Below are positions 1 to 60,340 of a stretch of DNA of 64,000 nucleotides, piece after piece. Made by a program: the position numbers and the translations under genes. Location: NCBI RefSeq assembly GCF_044324785.1, contig NZ_CP172127.1; one strand, given 5' to 3'. The DNA is from Escherichia coli. GTDB taxonomy: Bacteria > Pseudomonadota > Gammaproteobacteria > Enterobacterales > Enterobacteriaceae. The notes beneath the pieces were generated by a model. That model was not told the origin of the DNA, made no database searches, and saw only the letters and a list, made by a program, of their open reading frames with translations. Numbering within the stretch: position 1 is the stretch's first letter; every line of letters begins with the position of its first letter.

Positions 1-81
1 GTGATTATCGCTGACAAACCATTTAGTCATTAAGGCTGGATGGTTTGTATACCACACGCAAAATAACTGCCCTACCCCAGA

Positions 82-957
82 TCAATGCTCTCCTCTGAAC
101 ACCTCTTTTCTGTGCCATTCAACAAACTGCTCGCCCGGATAATTTTCTTTAACCGGTGGCAACGCAATCGCCTTTCCCGCAAAATCCCAGAACAGTCGCT
201 GTACCACTCCACCACCATTTACCGCGCCGGAAACCACCACACGCATATTTTCATCCAAGCCAATCGAACCGCGATCAAACGCTTTATGATGGATTGCGCA
301 CAATGCCAGGCCATTAGGTACTTCACAAGGGCCATGGTGCTGCTTCCATCTGATATGAGCGGCTTCCAGAGCAATCGGCGCATTGTCGTGGCGCATGTTA
401 AAGCCGCAGATAGCGCACTGATAATTGTAAGCACGTAGCACCATCTGGCGAAACTTCGGATCGCGTTGACGGAGAGAGGTGCGAATATCAAAACCCATCT
501 CGTCAGCGATCTCTTCCTGAATACTGGCCGGGAAATGCGCCTCCAGGAGCTGCTGCGCCAGCGTATCAATTAACCTGTGATTTTTTGCCACCAACGCAAA
601 ATTATCGGCATCAAATCCACCAGCAACATTATATTCAATGAGTTCTCGTCGGGGCGGCTGGCGGCTACCACTGGTTGAGCACAGTTCCGCGTTATGTAGT
701 TCCCAGAAGCCATCGCCCTTCAGACGCCAGAACGGCATGTCCGGGCGCTGGTCACGGCGCTGCGGTCCATAACGTTCCAGGAGATCCAACAGGGGCTCGT
801 AGATTTCAGAACCATAGTTAAACAGGCGACCATGACCCTGCCGATAGTGTGAGAGAACGTACAGCAGCAATAATGGCTTATGTGGCGCACGTTGTTCGCC
901 TTTGCGCCAGATGGTGATATTTGATATCGCTTGCTTTAGGGTTTTGTCAGAGGTCAT
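82..957 (-). CDS. HNH-nuclease-domain protein (C-terminal CxxC...H...N...CxxHH motif), island cargo gene; N-terminal ~190 aa of unknown function
   Basis: ORF track 82..1002; start moved to internal ATG at 957 (291 aa). C-terminus carries YQCAICGF...AAHIRWKQHHGP...NGLALCAIHHKAFD, typical of HNH/His-Me finger nucleases. No clear Shine-Dalgarno, so start is uncertain. Confidence 0.6.
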   Translation of the reverse strand: MTSDKTLKQAISNITIWRKGEQRAPHKPLLLLYVLSHYRQGHGRLFNYGSEIYEPLLDLLERYGPQRRDQRPDMPFWRLKGDGFWELHNAELCSTSGSRQPPRRELIEYNVAGGFDADNFALVAKNHRLIDTLAQQLLEAHFPASIQEEIADEMGFDIRTSLRQRDPKFRQMVLRAYNYQCAICGFNMRHDNAPIALEAAHIRWKQHHGPCEVPNGLALCAIHHKAFDRGSIGLDENMRVVVSGAVNGGGVVQRLFWDFAGKAIALPPVKENYPGEQFVEWHRKEVFRGEH

Positions 958-1101
958 TGCGTTGGAGAATCCATGAGCACATATTTGCGATGATGCTCGC
1001 AACTATATGTACATTCAAGGCATTATTGCAGACATCCTTTTTCTCTGGCGGTTCTGTACCTGGCAGATAGAATTCTGATAACAACGGTAAAAAATACAGC
1101 G

Positions 1102-1132
1102 ACCAACCAGTCCTAAGCGGGCTGGTTGGTCT
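1102..1132. terminator. Perfect 10-bp stem hairpin (GACCAACCAG/CTGGTTGGTC) between integrase and HNH gene, T-rich on both flanks
   Basis: Seen directly; followed by TTTTAAATTT on + strand and by TATTTTTTAC on - strand. Confidence 0.45.
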
Positions 1133-1172
1133 TTTAAATTTAAACATCAGCCGAGGAATAACGGCATTCAAC

Positions 1173-2441
1173 TCACTCGCCATTACCCCGATTGATCTTC
1201 GCATAGTCAAACGGCGTAATCGCTCTCTCCCGATTCGCATCCAGAAAATCGGCCCACCACTGCAACATCAGCTTGCGCTCATCCAGATGTTCCGCTTTAT
1301 GGATATACGCCGCTCGCACCGAATTGCGCTCCATATGACTCATCTGTCGTTCCACCGCATCCTTCGACCATAACCCGGACTCAATTAACGAGCTACAGGC
1401 CATTGTGCGGAAGCCGTGGCCGCAAACTTCAACCTTAGTGTCATAACCCATCACCCGTAGCGCACTGTTCACCGTGTTTTCACTCATGGGCTTACGCGGA
1501 TCGTGATCGCCAATAAAAATCAGCTCATGCTCACCACAGAACTGCTTTATCTGCTTCAGGATCGCCAGCGCCTGCTTTGAAAGCGGCACCAGATGCGGTG
1601 TGCGCATCTTTGTTCCTCGCTGAGAATGTTTCACGCCGGGAATCGGTTCTCGCTCAGGAGGGATGGTCCACATTGATGTTTCAAAATCGATCTCTGACCA
1701 ACGAGCAAAACGCAGCTCACTGGACCGAATAAAGATAAGCAGAGTGAGTTCTGTCGCCCAGCGGGTTAGCGGCCTGCCGGTATAGCCGTCTATTTTCTCA
1801 AGCAACTCAGGGATGCGCTTTAACTCCAGCGCCGGACGATGCTGTCGATTACTGGAAGCAACCGCCCCCGCCATCTCTTGCGCCGGATTGTAATCAATTA
1901 ACCCGCTTTGCACTGCATAACGCATGATGGCCGTGGTGCGCTGTTGAAGGCGGGAAGCCACTTCAAGGCGTCCGGATTTCTCCACGGCTTTAATAGGAAT
2001 TAACAGATCGCGGGTGCCTAGTTCAGCAATATTGCGAGTACCAATTGCCGGGAAGATATTGTCCTCCAGGCTCTTTTTTACACGATTAGCATGATCTTCC
2101 GACCATTTTTGGTTGGTTACGAACCACTCTCTGGCAACCTTCTCGAAAGTAATAATCTCTTTCGCCTGCTCTTCTTTCACAGCACGCTTATGCTCACGAG
2201 GATCGATACCAGCAGCTACCAGCTTTCTGGCCTCTTCCCTTTTCTTCCGCGCATCCGCCAGTGAAACATCCGGGTAAACGCCGAACGCCATCAAATGTTG
2301 TTTACCGCCAAAACGGAAACGAAATCGCCAATACTTTGAACCGCCAGGTTTTACAAGTAAGGACATGCCGTCGCCGTCAACAAGTGAATACTCTTTCTCC
2401 TCTGGTTTCGCAGAACGAACTTTAGTATCCGTTAGGGCCAT
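1173..2441 (-). CDS. P4-family (CP4-like) tyrosine integrase
   Basis: ORF track 1173..2519 begins with GTG; start placed at ATG for MALTDTKV with GGAAGGAAG RBS (422 aa). N-terminal arm-binding motif GSKYWRFRFRFGGK, C-terminal catalytic region, and position directly beside the tRNA-Leu 3' end. Confidence 0.9.
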   Translation of the reverse strand: MALTDTKVRSAKPEEKEYSLVDGDGMSLLVKPGGSKYWRFRFRFGGKQHLMAFGVYPDVSLADARKKREEARKLVAAGIDPREHKRAVKEEQAKEIITFEKVAREWFVTNQKWSEDHANRVKKSLEDNIFPAIGTRNIAELGTRDLLIPIKAVEKSGRLEVASRLQQRTTAIMRYAVQSGLIDYNPAQEMAGAVASSNRQHRPALELKRIPELLEKIDGYTGRPLTRWATELTLLIFIRSSELRFARWSEIDFETSMWTIPPEREPIPGVKHSQRGTKMRTPHLVPLSKQALAILKQIKQFCGEHELIFIGDHDPRKPMSENTVNSALRVMGYDTKVEVCGHGFRTMACSSLIESGLWSKDAVERQMSHMERNSVRAAYIHKAEHLDERKLMLQWWADFLDANRERAITPFDYAKINRGNGE

Positions 2442-2467
2442 AGTGGTCTTCCTTCCATTGGTATCTC

Positions 2468-2519
2468 GTGAGTATACAAGCAATATCGAATCGGCAAATA
2501 TACTCATTAGTATACTCAC
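2468..2519. repeat. Inverted 10-bp repeat GTGAGTATAC / GTATACTCAC plus extra TATACTCA copy in the integrase 5' region
   Basis: Seen directly at 2468-2477 and 2510-2519, with a further TATACTCA at ~2499-2506; lies between the integrase start and leuX. Confidence 0.5.
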
Positions 2520-2603
2520 AAGCCTGTTGATGTGGGTTGAGTCAGGTTGACTTCAGTTGAGGAGAAAAGCTGGAAAAGCCTTGTGTAGCGCGGATTTCAG
2601 GCA

Positions 2604-2628
2604 TAAAAAAAGACCTCAGTTGAGGTCT
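2604..2628 (-). terminator. Rho-independent terminator downstream of leuX
   Basis: Hairpin AGACCTCA-GT-TGAGGTCT followed on the minus strand by a T7 tract. Confidence 0.75.
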
Positions 2629-2641
2629 ATTTACATACTTT

Positions 2642-2726
2642 TGGTGCCGAAGGCCGGACTCGAACCGGCACGTATTTCTACGGTTGATTTTGAATCAACT
2701 GCGTCTACCGATTTCGCCACTTCGGC
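2642..2726 (-). tRNA. leuX: tRNA-Leu (anticodon CAA)
   Basis: 85-nt sequence GCCGAAGTGGCGAAATCGGTAGACGCAGTTGATTCAAAATCAACCGTAGAAATACGTGCCGGTTCGAGTCCGGCCTTCGGCACCA on the minus strand, with encoded CCA. Confidence 0.95.
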
Positions 2727-2921
2727 ACTGAAGAGGTATGCGGAAAACGTTGTGGATTATACCTGTCGCACGCCACCATGCAAGCGCCAGCTTGCTCGCA
2801 CCTCGCTAAGTGCTGAAATTTTCAGCATTGCATACAGCGATGTGTAACCTTTGTCACACTCCAGGCACCCCGCCCTGCCATGCTCTACACTTCCCAGACA
2901 ACACCAGAGAAGGACCAAAAA

Positions 2922-3941
2922 ATGTCGATGATAAAAAGCTACGCCGCAAAAGAGGCTGGCGGCGAACTGGAACTTTATGAGTACGATCCCGGTGAACTGA
3001 AGCCACAAGATGTTGAAGTGCAGGTGGATTACTGCGGGATCTGCCATTCCGATCTGTCGATGATCGACAACGAATGGGGATTTTCACAGTATCCGCTGGT
3101 TGCCGGGCATGAGGTGATTGGTCGCGTGGTGGCGCTCGGGAGTGCCGCACAGGATAAAGGTTTGCAGGTCGGTCAGCGTGTCGGGATTGGCTGGACGGCA
3201 CGCAGCTGCGGGCATTGCGATGCCTGTATTAGCGGTAATCAGATCAACTGCGAGCAAGGCGCGGTGCCGACGATTATGAATCGCGGCGGCTTTGCTGAGA
3301 AGCTGCGTGCGGACTGGCAATGGGTGATCCCACTGCCAGAAAATATCGACATTGAATCTGCTGGGCCGCTGTTGTGCGGCGGTATCACGGTCTTTAAACC
3401 ACTGTTGATGCACCATATCACTGCCACCAGCCGCGTCGGCGTAATTGGTATTGGCGGGCTGGGGCATATCGCTATAAAACTTCTGCACGCAATGGGATGC
3501 GAGGTGACAGCCTTTAGTTCGAATCCGGCGAAAGAGCAGGAAGTGCTGGCGATGGGTGCCGATAAAGTGGTGAATAGCCGCGATCCGCAGGCACTCAAAG
3601 CACTGGCGGGGCAGTTTGATCTCATTATCAACACCGTCAACGTCAGCCTCGACTGGCAGCCTTATTTTGAGGCGCTGACGTATGGCGGTAATTTCCATAC
3701 GGTCGGTGCGGTTCTCACGCCGCTGTCTGTTCCGGCCTTTACGTTAATTGCGGGCGATCGCAGTGTCTCAGGTTCGGCAACCGGTACGCCTTATGAGCTG
3801 CGTAAGCTGATGCGCTTTGCCACCCGCAGCAAGGTTGCGCCGACCACCGAACTGTTCCCGATGTCGAAAATAAACGACGCCATCCAGCATGTGCGCAACG
3901 GTAAGGCGCGTTACCGCGTGGTTCTGAAAGCCGATTTTTGA
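2922..3941 (+). CDS. ahr: NADPH-dependent aldehyde reductase (Zn-dependent ADH family)
   Basis: ORF 2880..3941; start at [14 protein letters not shown] with RBS; GHEVIG and CGICHSD zinc-ADH motifs. Confidence 0.92.
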
Positions 3942-3944
3942 AAA

Positions 3945-4508
3945 TCATTCGCAGCGCTGATCTGAGGCGCTGCCCCCTTTCGCACATATTCTGTCTTGTC
4001 GTATCGCCAGCACGGCCTGCCGACATTGTTCGGTGACATTGGCAATATCATGGTTGATATCAATGCGCACAATATCCTGTTCATCTGCTTGTGGACGCTC
4101 CAGCGCCTCAAACTGACTTTTTAGTAACGCTACCGGCATAAAATGCCCAGCCCGCCGCTGCATTCGCGCGAGAATAGTTTCATAGTCGCCATCTAACCAG
4201 AGGAAATGAACATGGGGGCTACCCTTGCGTAAAATATCACGATACTGTTTTTTTAATGATGAACAGACAATAAATCCTGTTTCATTCTTTTTATAAAGAC
4301 TGTATGAAGCATCATTTAAGCGTTCCAGCCAGGGAAGTCGATCTTCATCAGATAATGGAATACCCTGCGACATTTTATCTATATTTTTGGCTGGATGAAG
4401 ATCGTCACCATCAATAAATTTAGCAGATAATAACGCGGCAACCTTGCTACCAATTAATGTTTTACCACTCCCTGAAACGCCCATCAAAATAAAGCTTTCA
4501 CCCGCCAT
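3945..4508 (-). CDS. idnK: Gluconate kinase (thermosensitive, GntV)
   Basis: 187 aa, Walker A GVSGSGKT; sits divergent to idnD. Confidence 0.92.
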   Translation of the reverse strand: MAGESFILMGVSGSGKTLIGSKVAALLSAKFIDGDDLHPAKNIDKMSQGIPLSDEDRLPWLERLNDASYSLYKKNETGFIVCSSLKKQYRDILRKGSPHVHFLWLDGDYETILARMQRRAGHFMPVALLKSQFEALERPQADEQDIVRIDINHDIANVTEQCRQAVLAIRQDRICAKGGSASDQRCE

Positions 4509-4609
4509 TTAAAATCTCCTGAATCATCTTACCTGCTGCGATACTACGCCTAGTGGCATAATAATTTCACGTTTTTTTATTTCTGCTGATAAGAATTACA
4601 AGGCACATC

Positions 4610-4625
4610 ACGTTATGCGTAACAT
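4610..4625. promoter_or_regulatory. Near-palindromic GntR/IdnR-type operator (ACGTTATGCGTAACAT) in the idnK/idnD divergent promoter region
   Basis: Palindrome seen directly; resembles the gnt operator consensus ATGTTACCGGTAACAT. Confidence 0.55.
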
Positions 4626-4724
4626 AGTAATGTAACAATTTTCTGACGTGATCTTCATCACAAATAATGACAATTAAAACCGCTTAAATGCTTCCGAGGT
4701 GTCTACCTGACCAGTGAGGAATTT

Positions 4725-5756
4725 ATGCAAGTGAAAACACAGTCCTGCGTTGTTGCGGGCAAGAAAACTGTTGCCGTTACCGAGCAGACGATAGATTGGA
4801 ATAATAATGGAACATTAGTACAAATAACCCGAGGTGGAATTTGCGGTTCCGATTTACATTATTATCAGGAAGGAAAAGTAGGTAATTTCATGATAAAGGC
4901 ACCGATGGTGTTAGGTCATGAAGTTATCGGTAAAGTTATTCATAGCGACTCATCAGAATTACATGAAGGGCAAACGGTAGCCATTAATCCGTCTAAACCG
5001 TGCGGTCACTGCAAATACTGCATTGAACATAACGAGAATCAGTGTACAGATATGCGTTTTTTTGGCAGTGCCATGTATTTCCCTCATGTTGATGGTGGTT
5101 TTACCCGTTATAAAATGGTCGAAACGTCGCAATGTGTCCCTTATCCGGCCAAAGCTGACGAAAAGGTTATGGCTTTTGCCGAACCTTTAGCCGTCGCGAT
5201 TCATGCCGCACATCAGGCCGGCGAGTTACAGGGCAAGCGAGTATTTGTTTCCGGTGTTGGGCCCATTGGCTGCCTGATTGTCAGTGCTGTGAAAACACTG
5301 GGGGCCGCGGAAATTGTCTGTGCCGATGTGAGTCCCCGTTCCCTTTCGCTGGCCAAAGAGATGGGTGCGGATGTGCTCGTAAACCCACAAAACGACGACA
5401 TGGATCACTGGAAAGCGGAAAAAGGCCATTTCGATGTCAGCTTTGAAGTGTCCGGTCATCCTTCATCAGTGAATACCTGTCTGGAGGTCACTCGTGCACG
5501 CGGCGTAATGGTGCAGGTAGGGATGGGAGGCGCGATGGCAGAATTCCCAATGATGACGTTGATTGGTAAGGAGATTTCACTCAGAGGCTCTTTCCGTTTT
5601 ACCAGCGAATTTAATACCGCAGTGTCATGGCTGGCGAATGGCGTTATCAGTCCACTGCCTTTACTGAGTGCTGAATATCCCTTCACTGACCTGGAAGAGG
5701 CGCTACGTTTCGCCGGTGATAAAACCCAGGCAGCAAAAGTCCAGCTTGTTTTCTAA
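4725..5756 (+). CDS. idnD: L-idonate 5-dehydrogenase
   Basis: 343 aa zinc-ADH family; operon position idnD-O-T-R. Confidence 0.92.
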   Translation: MQVKTQSCVVAGKKTVAVTEQTIDWNNNGTLVQITRGGICGSDLHYYQEGKVGNFMIKAPMVLGHEVIGKVIHSDSSELHEGQTVAINPSKPCGHCKYCIEHNENQCTDMRFFGSAMYFPHVDGGFTRYKMVETSQCVPYPAKADEKVMAFAEPLAVAIHAAHQAGELQGKRVFVSGVGPIGCLIVSAVKTLGAAEIVCADVSPRSLSLAKEMGADVLVNPQNDDMDHWKAEKGHFDVSFEVSGHPSSVNTCLEVTRARGVMVQVGMGGAMAEFPMMTLIGKEISLRGSFRFTSEFNTAVSWLANGVISPLPLLSAEYPFTDLEEALRFAGDKTQAAKVQLVF

Positions 5757-5779
5757 GAGATAAATAAAGGAATAATACA

Positions 5780-6544
5780 ATGAACGATCTATTTTCACTG
5801 GCAGGAAAAAATATCTTGATTACCGGTTCAGCACAGGGCATTGGCTTTTTACTGGCAACCGGCCTGGGTAAATATGGCGCACAAATAATTATTAATGATA
5901 TTACTGCCGAACGCGCAGAACTTGCTGTAGAAAAACTCCACCAGGAGGGTATTCAGGCCGTTGCCGCACCTTTTAATGTTACTCATAAACATGAAATTGA
6001 TGCCGCCGTTGAACATATCGAAAAGGACATCGGCCCCATTGATGTGCTGGTGAATAACGCCGGTATCCAGCGCCGTCATCCTTTTACTGAGTTCCCTGAA
6101 CAAGAGTGGAATGATGTGATCGCAGTAAACCAGACCGCCGTGTTCCTGGTATCGCAAGCGGTAACTCGTCACATGGTTGAACGCAAGGCAGGTAAAGTTA
6201 TTAATATTTGCTCGATGCAAAGCGAACTGGGACGTGACACCATCACCCCTTATGCCGCATCGAAAGGGGCGGTAAAAATGCTCACCCGCGGCATGTGCGT
6301 CGAGCTGGCGCGCCACAATATTCAGGTCAACGGTATTGCGCCGGGCTATTTCAAAACAGAAATGACTAAAGCACTGGTTGAGGACGAAGCCTTCACCGCC
6401 TGGTTGTGCAAACGGACCCCCGCCGCACGCTGGGGAGATCCGCAGGAACTGATTGGTGCTGCGGTGTTCCTTTCTTCAAAAGCCTCTGATTTCGTAAACG
6501 GCCACCTGTTGTTTGTTGATGGCGGCATGTTAGTGGCTGTTTAA
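5780..6544 (+). CDS. idnO: 5-keto-D-gluconate 5-reductase (SDR)
   Basis: 254 aa; TGSAQGIG Rossmann motif. Confidence 0.92.
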   Translation: MNDLFSLAGKNILITGSAQGIGFLLATGLGKYGAQIIINDITAERAELAVEKLHQEGIQAVAAPFNVTHKHEIDAAVEHIEKDIGPIDVLVNNAGIQRRHPFTEFPEQEWNDVIAVNQTAVFLVSQAVTRHMVERKAGKVINICSMQSELGRDTITPYAASKGAVKMLTRGMCVELARHNIQVNGIAPGYFKTEMTKALVEDEAFTAWLCKRTPAARWGDPQELIGAAVFLSSKASDFVNGHLLFVDGGMLVAV

Positions 6545-6608
6545 CAGCCACCACCCTACGTGCAGCGCGAAAGCGCTGCTTTTCTGGCACTAATAAGAGA
6601 TAAAGACT

Positions 6609-7928
6609 ATGCCATTAATCATTATTGCGGCAGGCGTCGCGCTGCTTCTTATCCTGATGATCGGCTTTAAAGTTAACGGCTTTATTGCCCTCGTTCTGGT
6701 AGCTGCCGTCGTCGGATTTGCCGAAGGGATGGATGCACAGGCCGTCCTGCACTCTATACAAAATGGTATCGGCAGCACGCTCGGCGGGCTGGCAATGATC
6801 CTCGGTTTCGGGGCCATGTTAGGCAAGCTGATTTCTGATACGGGTGCGGCACAACGTATCGCCACTACGCTGATTGCTACTTTTGGTAAAAAACGCGTGC
6901 AATGGGCGCTAGTGATCACCGGTCTGGTTGTGGGCCTCGCCATGTTTTTTGAAGTGGGTTTTGTCCTGCTGTTGCCGTTGGTATTTACCATCGTAGCATC
7001 ATCAGGATTACCCCTGTTGTATGTTGGCGTACCAATGGTAGCAGCGCTCTCTGTAACCCACTGTTTTCTGCCGCCACATCCAGGGCCTACTGCCATCGCG
7101 ACTATCTTTGAGGCTAATCTCGGAACGACTTTACTGTATGGATTTATCATTACCATTCCGACAGTTATTGTCGCAGGACCGCTGTTTTCTAAACTGCTAA
7201 CTCGCTTTGAGAAAGCACCACCGGAAGGCTTATTTAATCCTCATCTGTTTAGCGAAGAGGAGATGCCCTCTTTCTGGAACAGTATTTTCGCTGCCGTGAT
7301 CCCGGTCATCCTGATGGCTATCGCCGCCGTTTGTGAAATTACGTTACCGAAAACTAACACCGTGCGCCTCTTCTTTGAATTTGTCGGTAACCCTGCCGTT
7401 GCGCTGTTTATTGCCATTGTTATTGCGATTTTCACACTGGGCCGACGTAATGGACGCACCATCGAGCAAATCATGGATATCATTGGGGATTCTATAGGCG
7501 CTATCGCGATGATTGTGTTTATTATCGCTGGCGGCGGCGCGTTTAAGCAGGTATTAGTAGATAGCGGTGTCGGGCACTATATTTCACACTTAATGACAGG
7601 AACTACGCTTTCGCCGTTATTGATGTGCTGGACTGTTGCGGCGCTGTTGCGTATCGCTCTGGGCTCTGCCACCGTCGCGGCCATTACCACCGCGGGTGTG
7701 GTGTTGCCGATTATCAACGTTACCCATGCCGATCCCGCTTTAATGGTACTGGCAACCGGTGCGGGCAGCGTGATCGCGTCACACGTAAACGACCCTGGCT
7801 TCTGGCTATTTAAAGGGTATTTTAATCTGACGGTTGGTGAAACGTTGCGTACCTGGACGGTGATGGAAACCCTTATTTCTATTATGGGTTTGCTGGGCGT
7901 GTTAGCCATTAACGCCGTATTGCACTGA
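6609..7928 (+). CDS. idnT: L-idonate/gluconate:H+ transporter (GntP family)
   Basis: 439 aa polytopic membrane protein. Confidence 0.92.
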   Translation: MPLIIIAAGVALLLILMIGFKVNGFIALVLVAAVVGFAEGMDAQAVLHSIQNGIGSTLGGLAMILGFGAMLGKLISDTGAAQRIATTLIATFGKKRVQWALVITGLVVGLAMFFEVGFVLLLPLVFTIVASSGLPLLYVGVPMVAALSVTHCFLPPHPGPTAIATIFEANLGTTLLYGFIITIPTVIVAGPLFSKLLTRFEKAPPEGLFNPHLFSEEEMPSFWNSIFAAVIPVILMAIAAVCEITLPKTNTVRLFFEFVGNPAVALFIAIVIAIFTLGRRNGRTIEQIMDIIGDSIGAIAMIVFIIAGGGAFKQVLVDSGVGHYISHLMTGTTLSPLLMCWTVAALLRIALGSATVAAITTAGVVLPIINVTHADPALMVLATGAGSVIASHVNDPGFWLFKGYFNLTVGETLRTWTVMETLISIMGLLGVLAINAVLH

Positions 7929-7994
7929 AAGAATAAAATATTGTGATGTAGTTTCGGGGGAAGATTGAAGATTCCCCCGACGTTGGGAGAAGTT

Positions 7995-8993
7995 ATGCGC
8001 AATCACAGAATTTCTTTACAGGATATCGCTACGCTGGCTGGCGTAACAAAAATGACCGTGAGTCGTTATATCCGCTCGCCGAAAAAGGTGGCAAAGGAAA
8101 CAGGCGAGCGCATCGCCAAAATTATGGAAGAGATCAATTATATCCCTAATCGCGCTCCCGGCATGTTGTTGAATGCACAAAGTTATACCCTCGGTATCTT
8201 GATTCCGTCATTTCAAAATCAACTCTTCGCTGACATTCTCGCGGGAATAGAATCCGTCACCTCTGAGCATAATTATCAGACCCTTATTGCTAATTACAAT
8301 TACGATCGCGATTCCGAAGAAGAGTCGGTGATTAACCTGCTCTCTTATAACATTGACGGGATTATACTTTCGGAAAAATATCACACCATCAGGACGGTGA
8401 AATTTCTGCGTTCAGCCACCATTCCGGTCGTGGAATTGATGGATGTACAGGGAGAACGGCTGGATATGGAGGTCGGTTTTGATAATCGGCAGGCCGCTTT
8501 TGACATGGTGTGTACCATGCTGGAGAAGCGAGTCAGGCACAAAATTCTGTATCTCGGTTCCAAAGATGACACCCGCGATGAACAGCGTTATCAGGGGTAT
8601 TGCGATGCGATGATGCTGCATAATCTTTCCCCATTACGCATGAATCCACGCGCCATCTCATCCATTCATTTAGGAATGCAGTTAATGCGTGATGCCCTTA
8701 GCGCAAACCCGGATTTAGACGGTGTATTTTGCACCAATGACGATATTGCGATGGGTGCGCTTCTGCTGTGCCGCGAGCGAAACCTCGCCGTGCCAGAACA
8801 AATTTCCATTGCGGGTTTTCATGGGCTGGAGATTGGCAGGCAAATGATCCCAAGCCTCGCCAGCGTAATTACTCCCCGTTTTGATATTGGTCGGATGGCC
8901 GCCCAAATGTTGCTGAGCAAAATTAAAAATAACGATCACAACCACAACACTGTTGACCTCGGGTATCAGATTTATCACGGCAACACGCTTTAG
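7995..8993 (+). CDS. idnR: LacI-family transcriptional regulator of idn operon
   Basis: ORF 7965..8993; start at [12 protein letters not shown] with RBS; N-terminal HTH. Confidence 0.9.
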
Positions 8994-9070
8994 GTTATTT
9001 TCTCTTCATTACACGTATTCTCTTTGCCGGACGTTGCCTATACTCCAGGCAGGAAACTGGAGGATATCTC

Positions 9071-10573
9071 ATGAGCGAACCCCTGTTAATTGCCCGCACG
9101 TCGGACACAGAACTGTTTTTACTGCCGGGAATGGCGAATCGTCACGGGCTGATTACTGGCGCAACGGGGACGGGTAAAACCGTTACGCTGCAAAAGCTGG
9201 CGGAGTCATTGTCGGAAATCGGTGTTCCGGTGTTTATGGCCGATGTGAAAGGTGATTTAACGGGAGTTGCGGAGGGAGGTACATCTTCGGAAAAACTGCT
9301 CGCAAGGCTTAAAAATATCGGCGTAAATGACTGGCAACCTCATGCTAATCCGGTGGTGGTGTGGGATATCTTTGGCGAGAAAGGCCATCCGGTGCGGGCG
9401 ACGGTTTCGGATCTGGGGCCGCTGTTGCTGGCGCGACTGTTGAATCTCAACGATGTGCAATCTGGCGTGCTGAATATTATCTTTCGTATTGCTGATGATC
9501 AGGGGCTGTTACTGCTCGACTTTAAAGATTTGCGGGCGATTACCCAGTACATCGGCGATAACGCCAAATCCTTCCAGAATCAGTACGGTAATATCAGTAG
9601 CGCATCGGTTGGTGCCATCCAGCGCGGGCTGTTATCGCTGGAACAGCAAGGCGCGGCGCACTTTTTTGGTGAGCCGATGCTGGATATCAAAGACTGGATG
9701 CGTACCGATACCAACGGTAAAGGCGTTATCAATATCCTCAGCGCCGAGAAGCTTTATCAGATGCCGAAACTGTACGCCGCCAGCCTGCTGTGGATGCTTT
9801 CAGAGTTGTATGAACAATTGCCGGAAGCGGGCGATCTGGAGAAACCAAAACTGGTGTTTTTCTTCGACGAGGCGCATCTGCTGTTTAATGACGCACCGCA
9901 GGTACTGCTGGATAAGATTGAGCAGGTGATAAGGCTTATCCGCTCGAAAGGCGTGGGCGTCTGGTTCGTTTCGCAAAACCCGTCAGATATTCCGGATAAC
10001 GTGCTCGGGCAGCTCGGTAATCGCGTTCAGCACGCTTTGCGGGCTTTTACGCCAAAAGATCAGAAAGCAGTGAAGGCAGCGGCGCAAACCATGCGGGCCA
10101 ATCCGGCATTTGATACCGAAAAGGCAATCCAGGAACTGGGGACCGGCGAGGCGTTGATCTCGTTTCTCGATGCGAAAGGAAGCCCTTCAGTGGTGGAACG
10201 GGCGATGGTGATTGCCCCCTGTTCACGAATGGGGCCGGTGACGGAAGATGAGCGTAATGGCTTGATTAATCACTCTCCGGTGTATGGCAAGTACGAGGAT
10301 GACGTGAACCGGGAATCCGCCTATGAGATGTTGCAAAAAGGCTTTCAGGCCAGTACCGAGCAGCAAAATAATCCTCCCGCGAAAGGGAAAGAGGTGGCGG
10401 TGGATGACGGTATTCTTGGTGGATTGAAGGATATTTTGTTTGGCACTACCGGACCACGCGGCGGGAAGAAAGATGGTGTGGTGCAAACAATGGCGAAAAG
10501 CGCCGCCCGCCAGGTGACGAATCAGATTGTGCGTGGGATGTTGGGGAGTTTGCTGGGGGGGAGAAAAAGATAA
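9071..10573 (+). CDS. yjgR: P-loop NTPase of unknown function (DUF853 family)
   Basis: 500 aa; Walker A GATGTGKT and Walker [10 protein letters not shown] seen. Confidence 0.88.
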
Positions 10574-10667
10574 GTCAGACGTGATCTGTGCCCCTCACCC
10601 TAACCCTCTCCCCAAAGGGGCAAGGGGACCGTTCGAACTCGTATTTGACTTTGTCAACAATAATAAA

Positions 10668-10683
10668 GGGAGCTTTCGCTCCC
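10668..10683. terminator. Short GC hairpin (GGGAGC-TTTC-GCTCCC) between convergent yjgR and lptG
   Basis: Seen directly; A/T-rich flanks. Confidence 0.45.
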
Positions 10684-10691
10684 TTGTTAGA

Positions 10692-11774
10692 TTACGATTT
10701 TCTCATTAACAGCCACAGGCTGATTAAGAAGAAGCTGGCGCTTGGCAACAGTGCGCCGATGATCGGCGGGATGCCATAAACCAACGTCAGCGGGCCGAAG
10801 ATCTGGTCCAGTACGTAGAAGACAAAACCGAAGCTGATACCGGTGACCACACGCACGCCCATCGGTACGCTACGCAGTGGGCCAAAGATGAACGACAGCG
10901 CCATCAACATCATCACCGCCACGGATAGCGGCTGGAAGATTTTGCTCCACATGTTGAGCTGATAACGTCCGGCATCCTGACCGCTCGACTTCAGATACTT
11001 CACATAGTTGTGCAAACCGCTGATAGAGAGTGCATCCGGGTCCAGCGCCACCACGCCCAGTTTGTCCGGCGTGAGGTTGGTTTTCCAGGTGCCGCTCACC
11101 GTCTGCGAACCGGTAATCTGTTTCGGATTGGTCAAATCAGATTCATCAACCTGCGACAGACGCCAGACTTTATGTTCCGGGTCAAACTTCGCGGTAGCGG
11201 CATAGCGTACGGATTGCAGACGACGATTCTCGTTAAAGGCATAAATGCTGATGCCACCTAACTCTTCGTCACCTTTAACCCGCTCAATGTAGACGAAGTT
11301 GTTGCCATCTTTCGCCCATAAGCCTTGCTGGGTAGAGAGCAACGAGCCGCCGTACATCGCCTGCGCACGGTAGTTACGCGCCATCTGTTCGCCCTGCGGC
11401 GCGACCCATTCGCCAATCGCCATCGTCAGCAAGACCAGCGGAATGGCGGTTTTCATCACCGACAGCGCAACCTGCATACGGGTAAAACCAGAAGCCTGCA
11501 TCACCACCAGTTCGCTGCGCTGCGCCAGCATCCCAAGACCAAGCAACGCCCCAAGCAGAGCCGCCATCGGGAAGAAGATTTGCACATCTTTCGGCACGCT
11601 CAGCAAGGTATACATTCCTGCGCCTAACGCGTCGTAACTCCCCTGCCCGGCTTTTTTCAGCTGATCGACAAACTTGATAATGCCCGACAGTGACACCAGC
11701 ATGAACAGCGTCATCATGATGGTGGTGAAAATAGTTTTACCGATATAGCGGTCAAGTACGCCAAAAGGTTGCAT
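10692..11774 (-). CDS. lptG: LPS export ABC transporter permease LptG
   Basis: ORF 10692..11777; start MQPFGVLDRYIGK (360 aa); overlaps the lptF stop. Confidence 0.92.
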   Translation of the reverse strand: MQPFGVLDRYIGKTIFTTIMMTLFMLVSLSGIIKFVDQLKKAGQGSYDALGAGMYTLLSVPKDVQIFFPMAALLGALLGLGMLAQRSELVVMQASGFTRMQVALSVMKTAIPLVLLTMAIGEWVAPQGEQMARNYRAQAMYGGSLLSTQQGLWAKDGNNFVYIERVKGDEELGGISIYAFNENRRLQSVRYAATAKFDPEHKVWRLSQVDESDLTNPKQITGSQTVSGTWKTNLTPDKLGVVALDPDALSISGLHNYVKYLKSSGQDAGRYQLNMWSKIFQPLSVAVMMLMALSFIFGPLRSVPMGVRVVTGISFGFVFYVLDQIFGPLTLVYGIPPIIGALLPSASFFLISLWLLMRKS

Positions 11775-12874
11775 CACACCGCTCCTTTACGCGAAAAACT
11801 GGCGCGCAGGCGGCGGACCGGCACGGTGTCCCAAAGGTTGAGAACAATCGCCAAAGCCAGATAAATCAGGTTAACGGTCCACATCCACAGCGTCGGGTCC
11901 AGCTTACCTTTACCGCCGTTCGATTTCAGGGAGGTCTGGATCAGGAAGAAAAGTAGATACAGCAGCATGGCTGGCAGCATCGACAGTACGCGTCCCTGAC
12001 GCGGGTTAACCACACTCAACGGTACAACCATAAGTGCCATCATAAACACGGTGAATACCAACGTGATACGCCAGTTCAGTTCTGCGCGGGCACGATCGGT
12101 GTCAGTCTTCCACAATGTGCGCATGTCCATCTGGTCGGTATCGTTCGGGTCGAGCGCCACCGCCTGGTGACCAATGATCGCCTGATAATCCTGGAAGTCC
12201 GTAATGCGGAAATCACGTAACAGTGCAGTGCCTTCGAAGCGCGTTCCCTGGTTGAGAGTGACGACCTGGGAGCCGTCGCGCAGCTGGGTTAAATGTCCGG
12301 AATCGGCCACCACCACAGAAGGACGTGCATTACCTTTTGGTCGAATTTGCGCGAGGAACACATCTTTAAAATCACTGCCGTCAACGCTTTCGATGAACAG
12401 CACCGAGCTGCCATTAGTCGCTTGCTGGAATTGCCCTTGCGCCAGCGCCGCCATGCCAGGGTTCGCTTTCGCTTCTGCTAACACTTCATCCTGATGACGC
12501 GATGACCACGGTCCCGCCCACATCACGTTAACCGCCGCGACGATTGCCGTGAATACCGCAAGGATCATTGCCGCTTTCACCAGAACCGCTTTGCTCAGGC
12601 CGCAGGCATGCATTACCGTAATTTCACTTTCGGTATACAGTTTGCCCAGCGTCATCAGCAGCCCGAGGAACAGGCTTAATGGCAGGATAAGCTGCGCCAT
12701 TTCCGGCACGCCCAACCCGAGAAGGGAGAGCACCAGATTCGCCGGAATATCGCCGTCAACCGCTGCGCCGAGGATCCTCACTAACTTTTGACAGAAGAAG
12801 ATCAAAAGCAAGATGAAGAGTATCGCCAGCTGGCTTTTGAGCGTCTCCCGCACCAGATATCTTATGATTATCAC
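11774..12874 (-). CDS. lptF: LPS export ABC transporter permease LptF
   Basis: 366 aa; MIIIRYLVRETLKSQ. Confidence 0.92.
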   Translation of the reverse strand: MIIIRYLVRETLKSQLAILFILLLIFFCQKLVRILGAAVDGDIPANLVLSLLGLGVPEMAQLILPLSLFLGLLMTLGKLYTESEITVMHACGLSKAVLVKAAMILAVFTAIVAAVNVMWAGPWSSRHQDEVLAEAKANPGMAALAQGQFQQATNGSSVLFIESVDGSDFKDVFLAQIRPKGNARPSVVVADSGHLTQLRDGSQVVTLNQGTRFEGTALLRDFRITDFQDYQAIIGHQAVALDPNDTDQMDMRTLWKTDTDRARAELNWRITLVFTVFMMALMVVPLSVVNPRQGRVLSMLPAMLLYLLFFLIQTSLKSNGGKGKLDPTLWMWTVNLIYLALAIVLNLWDTVPVRRLRASFSRKGAV

Positions 12875-59785: not shown

Positions 59786-60340
59786 ATGACCCTACGCAAG
59801 ATTCTGGCACTCACCTGCCTGCTGTTGCCGATGATGGCTTCCGCACATCAGTTCGAAACCGGTCAGCGAGTGCCGCCGATTGGCATTACCGATCGTGGCG
59901 AGTTGGTGCTTGATAAAGATCAGTTTAGCTACAAAACCTGGAACAGCGCGCAGTTAGTGGGAAAAGTGCGAGTACTGCAACATATTGCTGGTCGCACCTC
60001 TGCAAAAGAGAAAAATGCGACGCTGATTGAAGCGATTAAATCAGCAAAGTTACCGCACGATCGTTACCAGACCACCACCATTGTTAACACCGACGACGCA
60101 ATTCCGGGTTCCGGCATGTTTGTGCGCAGCAGTCTGGAGAGTAATAAAAAGCTTTATCCCTGGTCGCAGTTTATTGTCGATAGCAATGGCGTCGCGCGCG
60201 GTGCCTGGCAGCTGGATGAAGAAAGTTCCGCTGTAGTGGTGCTGGATAAAGACGGTCGCGTGCAATGGGCCAAAGACGGGGCGCTCACACCGGAAGAGGT
60301 GCAGCAAGTGATGGACCTGCTGCAAAAGTTGCTCAAATAA
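59786..60340 (+). CDS. ytfJ: Periplasmic protein YtfJ (DUF1131)
   Basis: 184 aa with signal peptide. Confidence 0.88.
   Translation: MTLRKILALTCLLLPMMASAHQFETGQRVPPIGITDRGELVLDKDQFSYKTWNSAQLVGKVRVLQHIAGRTSAKEKNATLIEAIKSAKLPHDRYQTTTIVNTDDAIPGSGMFVRSSLESNKKLYPWSQFIVDSNGVARGAWQLDEESSAVVVLDKDGRVQWAKDGALTPEEVQQVMDLLQKLLK

Follow-up and report, generated by a model that had tools for sequence, protein, structure and literature searches.

The gene at positions 82-957 of the analysed stretch of Escherichia coli DNA (64,000 nucleotides of contig NZ_CP172127.1, referred to here as the window) was identified with high confidence as coding for a stand-alone, phosphorothioate (PT)-dependent restriction endonuclease of the SBD-HNH type (type IV / type IIM), in which a sulfur-binding domain (SBD) precedes an HNH nuclease. 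This is an already known type of enzyme; the gene is already annotated by PGAP and a near-identical protein has been tested in the laboratory. The first-pass annotation of this DNA had proposed a single-gene, modification-dependent restriction nuclease with a sensor domain fused to an HNH domain. The proposal was correct: the SBD-HNH architecture was found, and restriction has been reported for WP_000199891, a protein identical at 290 of 291 residues (PMC6224610). The same annotation had considered the gene not assignable to a characterised family. This has to be revised, as the protein passes the cutoff of the NCBIfam model NF045808 and its near-identical counterpart was tested both biochemically and in vivo, which places it in a known characterised system.

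The open reading frame lies on the minus strand, with the ATG at 957 and the TGA stop codon as the complement of 82-84. It is intact, comprises 291 codons and begins at the start codon used by RefSeq in E. coli W and LY180. The translated product of 291 amino acids has a mass of 33.43 kDa and a pI of 8.3, and the motifs CAICGF, AAHIRWKQHHGP and NGLALCAIHHKAFD are all found in it. Short open reading frames antisense to the gene on the plus strand (85-438 and 156-317) were rejected as unsupported; they are located inside the conserved coding region.

Comparison of the protein with NCBIfam gave a match to NF045808, "phosphorothioated DNA-binding restriction endonuclease", with a score of 445 bits (E 9.4e-134), the cutoff being 180. 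The alignment runs end to end, placing residues 6-288 of the protein on positions 2-284 of the 284 in the model. The family is large: 526 representatives of 50%-identity clusters match the protein at E<1e-30. The NCBIfam E-value (9e-134) and the number of cluster representatives found at this threshold put the match well outside anything attributable to chance. The identical protein sequence is present on 354 public contigs, where it is labelled as a PT-DNA restriction endonuclease, and the precomputed Pfam matches for the exact protein in a public collection are PF26340 (DNA-SBD_ScoMcrA) and PF13391 (HNH_2). For the family alignment 131 diverse representatives were drawn from the 526; an AlphaFold2 model of the protein computed with this alignment had a mean pLDDT of 95.8 and a pTM of 0.91.

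A BLASTP comparison with WP_000199891.1 of E. coli W and LY180 revealed proteins of equal length with L37H as the sole change. The laboratory data for that protein come from Liu et al. 2018 (Nat Commun 9:4689, PMC6224610), who synthesised its gene and cloned it with 504 bp of upstream DNA. We checked the coordinates given there and found that they cover exactly the coding sequence plus 504 bp upstream, equivalent to window 82-1461; the upstream fragment in the window is 96% identical to that of W/LY180, with 19 nucleotide differences. The full gene with its own upstream region, introduced into DH10B, made transformation by the dnd cluster of Salmonella Cerro 87 about 1000-fold lower (PMC6224610). 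The phenotype demonstrated there is restriction of PT-modified plasmid DNA, so that phosphorothioated plasmids, which the first-pass annotation had put forward as a test substrate, are a real substrate of the near-identical protein. The purified SBD of WP_000199891 (residues 1-170) bound Rp and not Sp PT-DNA, and mutation of the proline equivalent to P165 of ScoMcrA diminished the binding (PMC6224610). In vitro it bound GpsGCC, GpsAAC/GpsTTC and GpsATC about equally (PMC6224610). Since an E. coli SBD shows this breadth in vitro, the sequence selectivity of the window enzyme may be looser than GpsAAC only.

The codons of the window gene and of the W allele differ by nine synonymous changes and one non-synonymous change, and purifying selection is therefore indicated. 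The single substitution, L37H, is located in the SBD helix which follows the H-K-P sulfur-cavity motif. Position 37 is occupied by R, K, Q or H in 108 of the 131 family representatives and by Leu in three; the H37 of the window allele is thus nearer to the family norm than the L37 tested in the laboratory. The DNA contacts described for ScoMcrA do not include its equivalent residue, Q127 (PMC6224610). The substitution itself is conservative-looking. Judging from these sequence comparisons, the H37 allele would be expected to behave like the tested L37 allele. It is unlikely in our estimation that the H37 allele has measurably different properties from L37 or that the integrase, the PT-nuclease and the 5′-nucleotidase at leuX form a functional unit. 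If H37 does differ, tighter or differently selective binding of PT-DNA, or less off-target "star" cleavage, would be possible.

The gene is the first, integrase-proximal cargo of a defence island which was integrated at leuX with a P4-family integrase and which extends past the left end of the window. The tRNA-Leu(CAA) gene leuX, the integration site of the island, was located at 2642-2726 on the minus strand by ARAGORN, by the Rfam tRNA model and by the E. coli W annotation. A tyrosine integrase of 422 amino acids is encoded next to leuX, on the same strand at 1173-2441. It is annotated as a tyrosine-type recombinase/integrase in E. coli W, and Pfam domains Arm-DNA-bind_3, Phage_int_M and Phage_integrase were recorded for the identical gene in two public assemblies (L004 and L009). 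To the right of leuX the core chromosome follows (ahr, idnK, idnDOTR, yjgR, lptFG, pepA ... tamAB, cpdB); it is collinear with that of E. coli W and about 97-98% identical to it. On the left, positions 1-4 hold the end of a convergent 5′-nucleotidase gene (PF06189) on the plus strand, with its stop codon at 2-4, as recognised from the E. coli W annotation and from L004 and L009; the locus occupies 11039-12004 in E. coli W, which corresponds to window -961..4. The genomic slot is the same as that of WP_000199891, which is also the first gene after the leuX integrase and convergent with a 5′-nucleotidase.

DNA of window 1-1200 has matches in 246 of 5,426 complete E. coli genomes (about 4%). Among the best matches (98.7%) are E. 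coli W and the strains KO11FL and LY180 derived from it; in these PGAP names the gene product "phosphorothioated DNA-binding restriction endonuclease". L004 and L009 share window 1-10957 with 100% identity and extend beyond its left edge, where the 5′-nucleotidase is followed by a 1263-aa SIR2_2 protein and then by a type I restriction-modification system. In L009 the SIR2_2 gene is interrupted by IS1. No dnd or ssp genes were found within the 64-kb window or within the 10 kb beyond its edge in L004 and L009. In the SBD-HNH family of PT-dependent endonucleases as a whole, fewer than 3.6% of the members are near dnd genes.

These neighbours bear on the question of partner genes past the window edge, raised in the first-pass annotation: further defence-island genes do lie there (5′-nucleotidase, SIR2 and type I restriction-modification). 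In principle the nuclease might act only within a multi-gene defence system, with the convergent 5′-nucleotidase and possibly the SIR2 protein as its partners, and not be a functional unit by itself. Recurrence of the gene order integrase / PT-nuclease / 5′-nucleotidase in E. coli W, in the lineage of the window and, with 96% protein identity, in Salmonella leuX islands speaks for such a system. We regard it as very unlikely, as the fragment which gave about 1000-fold restriction contained the PT-nuclease gene and its upstream region only, without the 5′-nucleotidase (PMC6224610). Moreover, homologues at 72-76% identity have other neighbours, namely McrBC, a separate ScoMcrA_N-domain protein or type II restriction-modification genes. 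The 5′-nucleotidase is missing from one Salmonella and one E. coli context (L003, L011/L012), and its convergent orientation means that it is not co-transcribed with the PT-nuclease. It was rejected as a required partner, being confined to the leuX-island lineage and absent around the homologues with 72-76% identity. The PT-nuclease is accordingly a stand-alone module within a defence island and not a subunit of a larger system, because its neighbours change at 72-76% identity and because the fragment of Liu et al. lacked the 5′-nucleotidase.

The intergenic region between the PT-nuclease and integrase genes (958-1172, minus strand) presumably contains the promoter and the 5′ UTR of the former. 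A GC-rich hairpin with a 13-bp stem was detected in it at 1101-1131 as an inverted repeat, by RNA folding and by a terminator scan, the last on the plus strand only. The hairpin lies 41 nt downstream of the integrase stop codon; folded as minus-strand RNA it has an energy of -21.7 kcal/mol, with z -4.09 relative to shuffled sequences. It is followed by TTTTAAATTT on the plus strand and by GCTGTATTTTTT on the minus strand and is likely to be an intrinsic terminator. An imperfect 18-nt inverted repeat (973-990 / 997-1014) is also present in the region. A TATAGT hexamer at 1002-1007, read by eye and not a tool result, resembles a -10 element.

Transcription of the gene separately from the integrase, as had been suggested in the first-pass annotation from the hairpin, is plausible. 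The 504 bp upstream of the W/LY180 gene (equivalent to window 958-1461) were enough for expression and restriction in DH10B (PMC6224610), which together with the hairpin favours the suggestion. In a scan for the sigma-70 consensus no promoter was called in the interval from the hairpin to the start codon of the 82-957 gene. A promoter belonging to the gene itself is probable within 958-1172, given that the hairpin stands between the gene and the integrase and that 504 bp of upstream DNA suffice for expression of the W allele.

The N-terminal part of the protein (residues about 1-142; 532-957 on the minus strand) is a ScoMcrA-type SBD, although the approximately 190 N-terminal residues had been thought to carry no recognisable motif. 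A phmmer search of PDB sequences matched residues 4-142 to the SBD of ScoMcrA (5ZMO/5ZMN/5ZMM) with E-values of 2e-6 to 2e-5; the same residues also match the SBD of SprMcrA (7CC9/7CCD/7CCJ). A modified-DNA-binding fold had been suspected for this part, with none recognised, and the AlphaFold2 model searched with Foldseek revealed the fold of a PT-DNA-binding SBD. The top Foldseek match in the PDB was 5zmo_A, the ScoMcrA SBD (probability 1.00, target-normalised TM 0.81, rmsd 2.7 A), and the top ranks also include the SprMcrA and Hga SBDs with TM of 0.68-0.77. The ScoMcrA, SprMcrA and Hga structures matched in this way were all solved with PT-DNA. The assignment is made because NCBIfam, the PDB sequence search, the precomputed Pfam matches and the fold search agree, unlike the Pfam-A scan. 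That scan, a check proposed in the first-pass annotation, did return HNH_2, as the sole match; PF26340, a newer SBD family, was not reported by it, and on this result by itself the N-terminal domain would have stayed without an assignment.

The sulfur cavity of ScoMcrA is built from H116, R117, Y164, P165 and A168 (PMC6224610). The putative cavity residues H26, K27, M74, P75 and R78 of the window protein align to these positions. Of the 131 family representatives, 120 retain H26, 129 retain K27 and 130 retain P75. The position of R117 is Lys in most homologues and that of Y164 is reported as variable, the Y164M change strengthening the binding in ScoMcrA (PMC6224610).

Sensing of a modified base instead of sulfur, as in the type IV enzymes dependent on methylcytosine or hydroxymethylcytosine (McrA, TagI and SRA-HNH kind), was weighed against this assignment and is extremely improbable. 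In favour of such sensing, the window protein has an HNH domain related by homology to the ones in TagI, VcaM4I and EcoKMcrA, and the generic "mREase_IV" model of PADLOC weakly matches the N-terminal region (E 5e-6). ScoMcrA also cleaves 5mC/5hmC DNA (PMC7461809), but it does so via its SRA domain, and a protein of 291 amino acids has no space for such a domain. The N-terminal domain matches SBD structures and not SRA or the N-terminal domain of EcoKMcrA; TagI, VcaM4I and EcoKMcrA ranked below the SBDs with low TM values of 0.21-0.31, and the sequence match to TagI is limited to the HNH domain (174-248). Finally, the allele which differs by one residue, WP_000199891, binds PT-DNA stereospecifically (PMC6224610).

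The possession of an SBD is shared with ScoMcrA of Streptomyces coelicolor (PDB 5ZMM/5ZMN/5ZMO), the founding PT-dependent type IV enzyme. The two SBDs are homologous (24% identity, TM 0.81), with H-R/K-P and x-P-F-W cavity motifs in both, and the C-terminal HNH domains are homologous as well. In contrast, ScoMcrA has 561 residues, with an extra N-terminal head domain and an SRA domain; its layout of head (PF26345, ScoMcrA_N), SBD, SRA and HNH was not encountered in the window protein, which consists of the SBD (1-142), a linker and the HNH domain only. The match to full-length ScoMcrA is limited to its SBD, chain residues 95-234. ScoMcrA further differs in its preference for GpsGCC and its variable cut distance (PMC7461809, PMC6224610), and has Y164 where the window protein has M74. 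The window protein works like the PT arm of ScoMcrA and is not a ScoMcrA orthologue. The two-domain SBD-HNH layout itself is found in SprMcrA of Streptomyces pristinaespiralis (PDB 7CC9/7CCD/7CCJ). That enzyme differs in needing Mn2+, in its H-N-R catalytic motif and in weak cleavage at a variable distance (PMC7461809). Sequence identity of the window protein to the SprMcrA and Hga (8H0L) SBDs is 18-19%.

The SBD is followed by a helical linker (residues about 143-175; 433-531, minus strand), which in the AlphaFold2 model contains helices at 144-154 and 167-176 and, over residues 161-170, a dip in pLDDT to 82. The legend of Fig. S19 of PMC7461809 refers to a "variable linker region", and the variable linker of the SBD-HNH family may set the cleavage distance. 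The remainder of the protein (residues about 176-291; 85-432, minus strand) is an HNH (beta-beta-alpha-Me) nuclease with a C-terminal extension. The HNH signature noticed earlier at the C-terminus was supported by the presence of its motifs and by Pfam HNH_2, which covers residues 181-235 with E 1e-9. Residues 174-248 match the HNH domain of TagI (6ghs) in the PDB sequence search, and among the Foldseek matches TagI, VcaM4I and EcoKMcrA represent the HNH part, ranked below the SBD structures. An NCBIfam match to IscB was weak (E 4e-4; 19.6 bits, with the cutoff at 175) and was rejected as due to the shared HNH motif only. From the alignment and the family motif, the zinc site is formed by C181-x2-C184 and C220-x2-H223, and the predicted catalytic residues are H201, N215 and H224. 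All seven (C181, C184, H201, N215, C220, H223 and H224) are present and are 96-100% conserved across the 131 family representatives. The assignment of CxxC/CxxH and H-N-H residues for the SBD-HNH family is given in the supplement of PMC7461809.

It is scarcely credible that the gene at this locus codes for a homing endonuclease or a selfish HNH element, or that it is a decayed, inactive remnant without a role in restriction. In favour of such readings are the frequent occurrence of HNH domains among homing endonucleases, the location on a mobile island and the "star" cleavage of which EcoWI, described below, is capable. Against them, no intron, intein or phage-packaging context was found at 82-957, an SBD forms the N-terminal domain, the frame is open over its full length with all zinc-binding and catalytic residues intact, the 9 : 1 ratio of synonymous to non-synonymous changes was observed, and the domain architecture is kept in hundreds of representatives.

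The name EcoWI, by REBASE nomenclature, presumably denotes an origin in E. coli strain W. We found two SBD-HNH genes in this strain, 76% identical to each other: the leuX copy, with a calculated product mass of 33.41 kDa, and the gene for WP_000168572.1 (33.31 kDa), which lies beside mcrBC, at the other end of this region. EcoWI resembles the window protein in its SBD-HNH architecture and in its size of about 33.3-33.4 kDa. It was characterised together with four homologues, about 28% identical to it, by Lutz et al. 2020 (Front Microbiol 11:1960, PMC7461809), and all five enzymes recognise GpsAAC/GpsTTC. EcoWI cuts N7/N6 relative to this site with a 1-nt 3′ overhang (PMC7461809). It is a dimer, stimulated by two sites, and needs Mg2+; with Mn2+ it is promiscuous, and non-specific "star" cleavage occurs at high concentration or with Mn2+ (PMC7461809). 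In vivo, dnd+ plasmids modified at GpsAAC were completely restricted (PMC7461809). EcoWI is also the enzyme behind EcoWI-seq (Yang et al. 2022).

The accession of EcoWI is absent from PMC7461809 (main text and supplement), PMC9521924 and PMC10602919. Assignment by mass was attempted and rejected, as the predicted masses published for EcoWI, 33.4 kDa in the main text and about 33.3 kDa in the supplement (PMC7461809), do not discriminate between the computed 33.41 and 33.31 kDa. EcoWI is thus either the WP_000199891 orthologue (99.7% identity) or its E. coli W paralogue with about 76% identity, and the data on GpsAAC, N7/N6 cleavage, Mg2+ and the dimer may belong to the paralogue. With two candidate genes for EcoWI, it is less certain that its exact cut geometry and metal dependence apply to the 82-957 enzyme as well. 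The assignment as a PT enzyme is unaffected by this ambiguity, since the experiments of Liu et al. were made on WP_000199891. The two paralogues of E. coli W present a small bookkeeping problem.

Taken together with the published work, these data would be consistent with the following mode of action. Foreign Dnd systems would write Rp-phosphorothioate linkages into DNA, most likely in the GpsAAC/GpsTTC context. The SBD of the nuclease, expressed from the gene's own upstream region, would dock the Rp sulfur into a small hydrophobic cavity (H26, K27, M74, P75), and the helical linker would place the zinc-stabilised HNH domain a fixed few base pairs off. HNH cleavage of both strands would follow a few base pairs away, probably by a dimer, as EcoWI is a dimer. 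Host DNA, presumed to carry no PT modification, would be spared, and incoming DNA replicated in dnd+ donors would be blocked, this being expected for plasmids and in principle for phages. The strain is predicted to resist plasmids, and possibly phages, from dnd+ Salmonella or E. coli donors which modify GpsAAC/GpsTTC. The practical value of the result is a correct annotation of the gene, which also marks the start of the leuX defence island.

A second SBD-HNH paralogue, WP_000168572.1, is encoded in E. coli W; it is 290 aa long and 76% identical to the window's protein. Its gene (L017:28974-29846, corresponding to NC_017635.1 4797973-4798845) adjoins mcrBC in the same region, at its nanS/fim end. 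The paralogue subfamily was also found in loci L013-L015 and L018-L021; in strains of Klebsiella and other E. coli, its members are paired with a protein of 212-216 aa that is divergently transcribed and contains PF26345 (ScoMcrA_N) and a weak HNH match. The 'head' domain, which in ScoMcrA is fused within the enzyme's own chain, therefore appears to stand as a separate, divergently oriented gene beside members of this subfamily. Unlike them, the window's gene has no ScoMcrA_N-type partner.

The characterised enzyme EcoWI was described without an accession both in the main text of the original report and in the legend of its supplementary Fig. S4, where the predicted mass is given as 33.4 kDa and ~33.3 kDa, respectively (PMC7461809). 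Since the masses computed for the two E. coli W paralogues are 33.41 and 33.31 kDa, EcoWI is not assignable to one of them by mass.

The part of the leuX island lying to the left of window position 1 was read from L004:10954-20876 and L009:10954-20876, two loci that are both 100% identical to window 1-10957. Beyond the window edge, a 5′-nucleotidase (PF06189) gene convergent with the nuclease gene is followed by genes for a SIR2_2-domain protein of 1263 aa, for a 228-aa protein lacking Pfam matches and for the type I RM system HsdS/M/R. IS1 interrupts the SIR2 gene in L009, after which the island gives way directly to fimB/fimE. Overall, the leuX island looks like a variable defence island. 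In one Salmonella locus (L012:1-7876, GCA_022331145.1), a 96%-identical gene and a P4-like satellite module comprising Psu, AlpA, Ash and D5/primase are separated by ~2 kb, in which no integrase was called; this proximity suggests that elements are arranged in tandem at a shared attachment site.

Inverted repeats are present on both sides of the nuclease gene. An imperfect 18-nt repeat at window 973-1014 (arms 973-990 and 997-1014, 78% complementary, 6-nt spacer) spans positions 16-57 nt ahead of the nuclease start codon, overlapping the -10-like hexamer TATAGT (1002-1007). This repeat could regulate the nuclease, acting either as an operator or as a 5′-UTR hairpin. A perfect 9-bp repeat at window 14-48, ACAAACCAT / ATGGTTTGT with a 17-nt spacer, is situated in the 77-bp gap separating the convergent stop codons of the 5′-nucleotidase and nuclease genes and may be a terminator common to both.

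Neither the core region (window 40000-64000) nor the whole window matched any complete RefSeq E. coli genome at more than 98.8% identity, and the window's lineage seems to be absent from the complete-genome collection searched. Identity to the left end of the window reaches 100% in two public assemblies, GCA_044687745.1 and GCA_053151395.1, both from the protein-lookup collection.

Comparison with E. coli W identified a ~1.2-kb segment between ytfJ and cysQ (window 60328-61552) that is missing in that strain. It carries no IS features and contains a 303-aa ORF (60430-61341, minus strand), presumably resembling K-12 ytfI. Window 21910-23100 is a locally divergent locus: only 520 bp of it align with E. 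coli W, at 88%, and opposite it that strain has a frameshifted 'DNA-binding protein' pseudogene between tabA and argF. All Rfam matches in the window were ordinary, namely the mgtA Mg2+ riboswitch (31589-31704) and several small RNAs.
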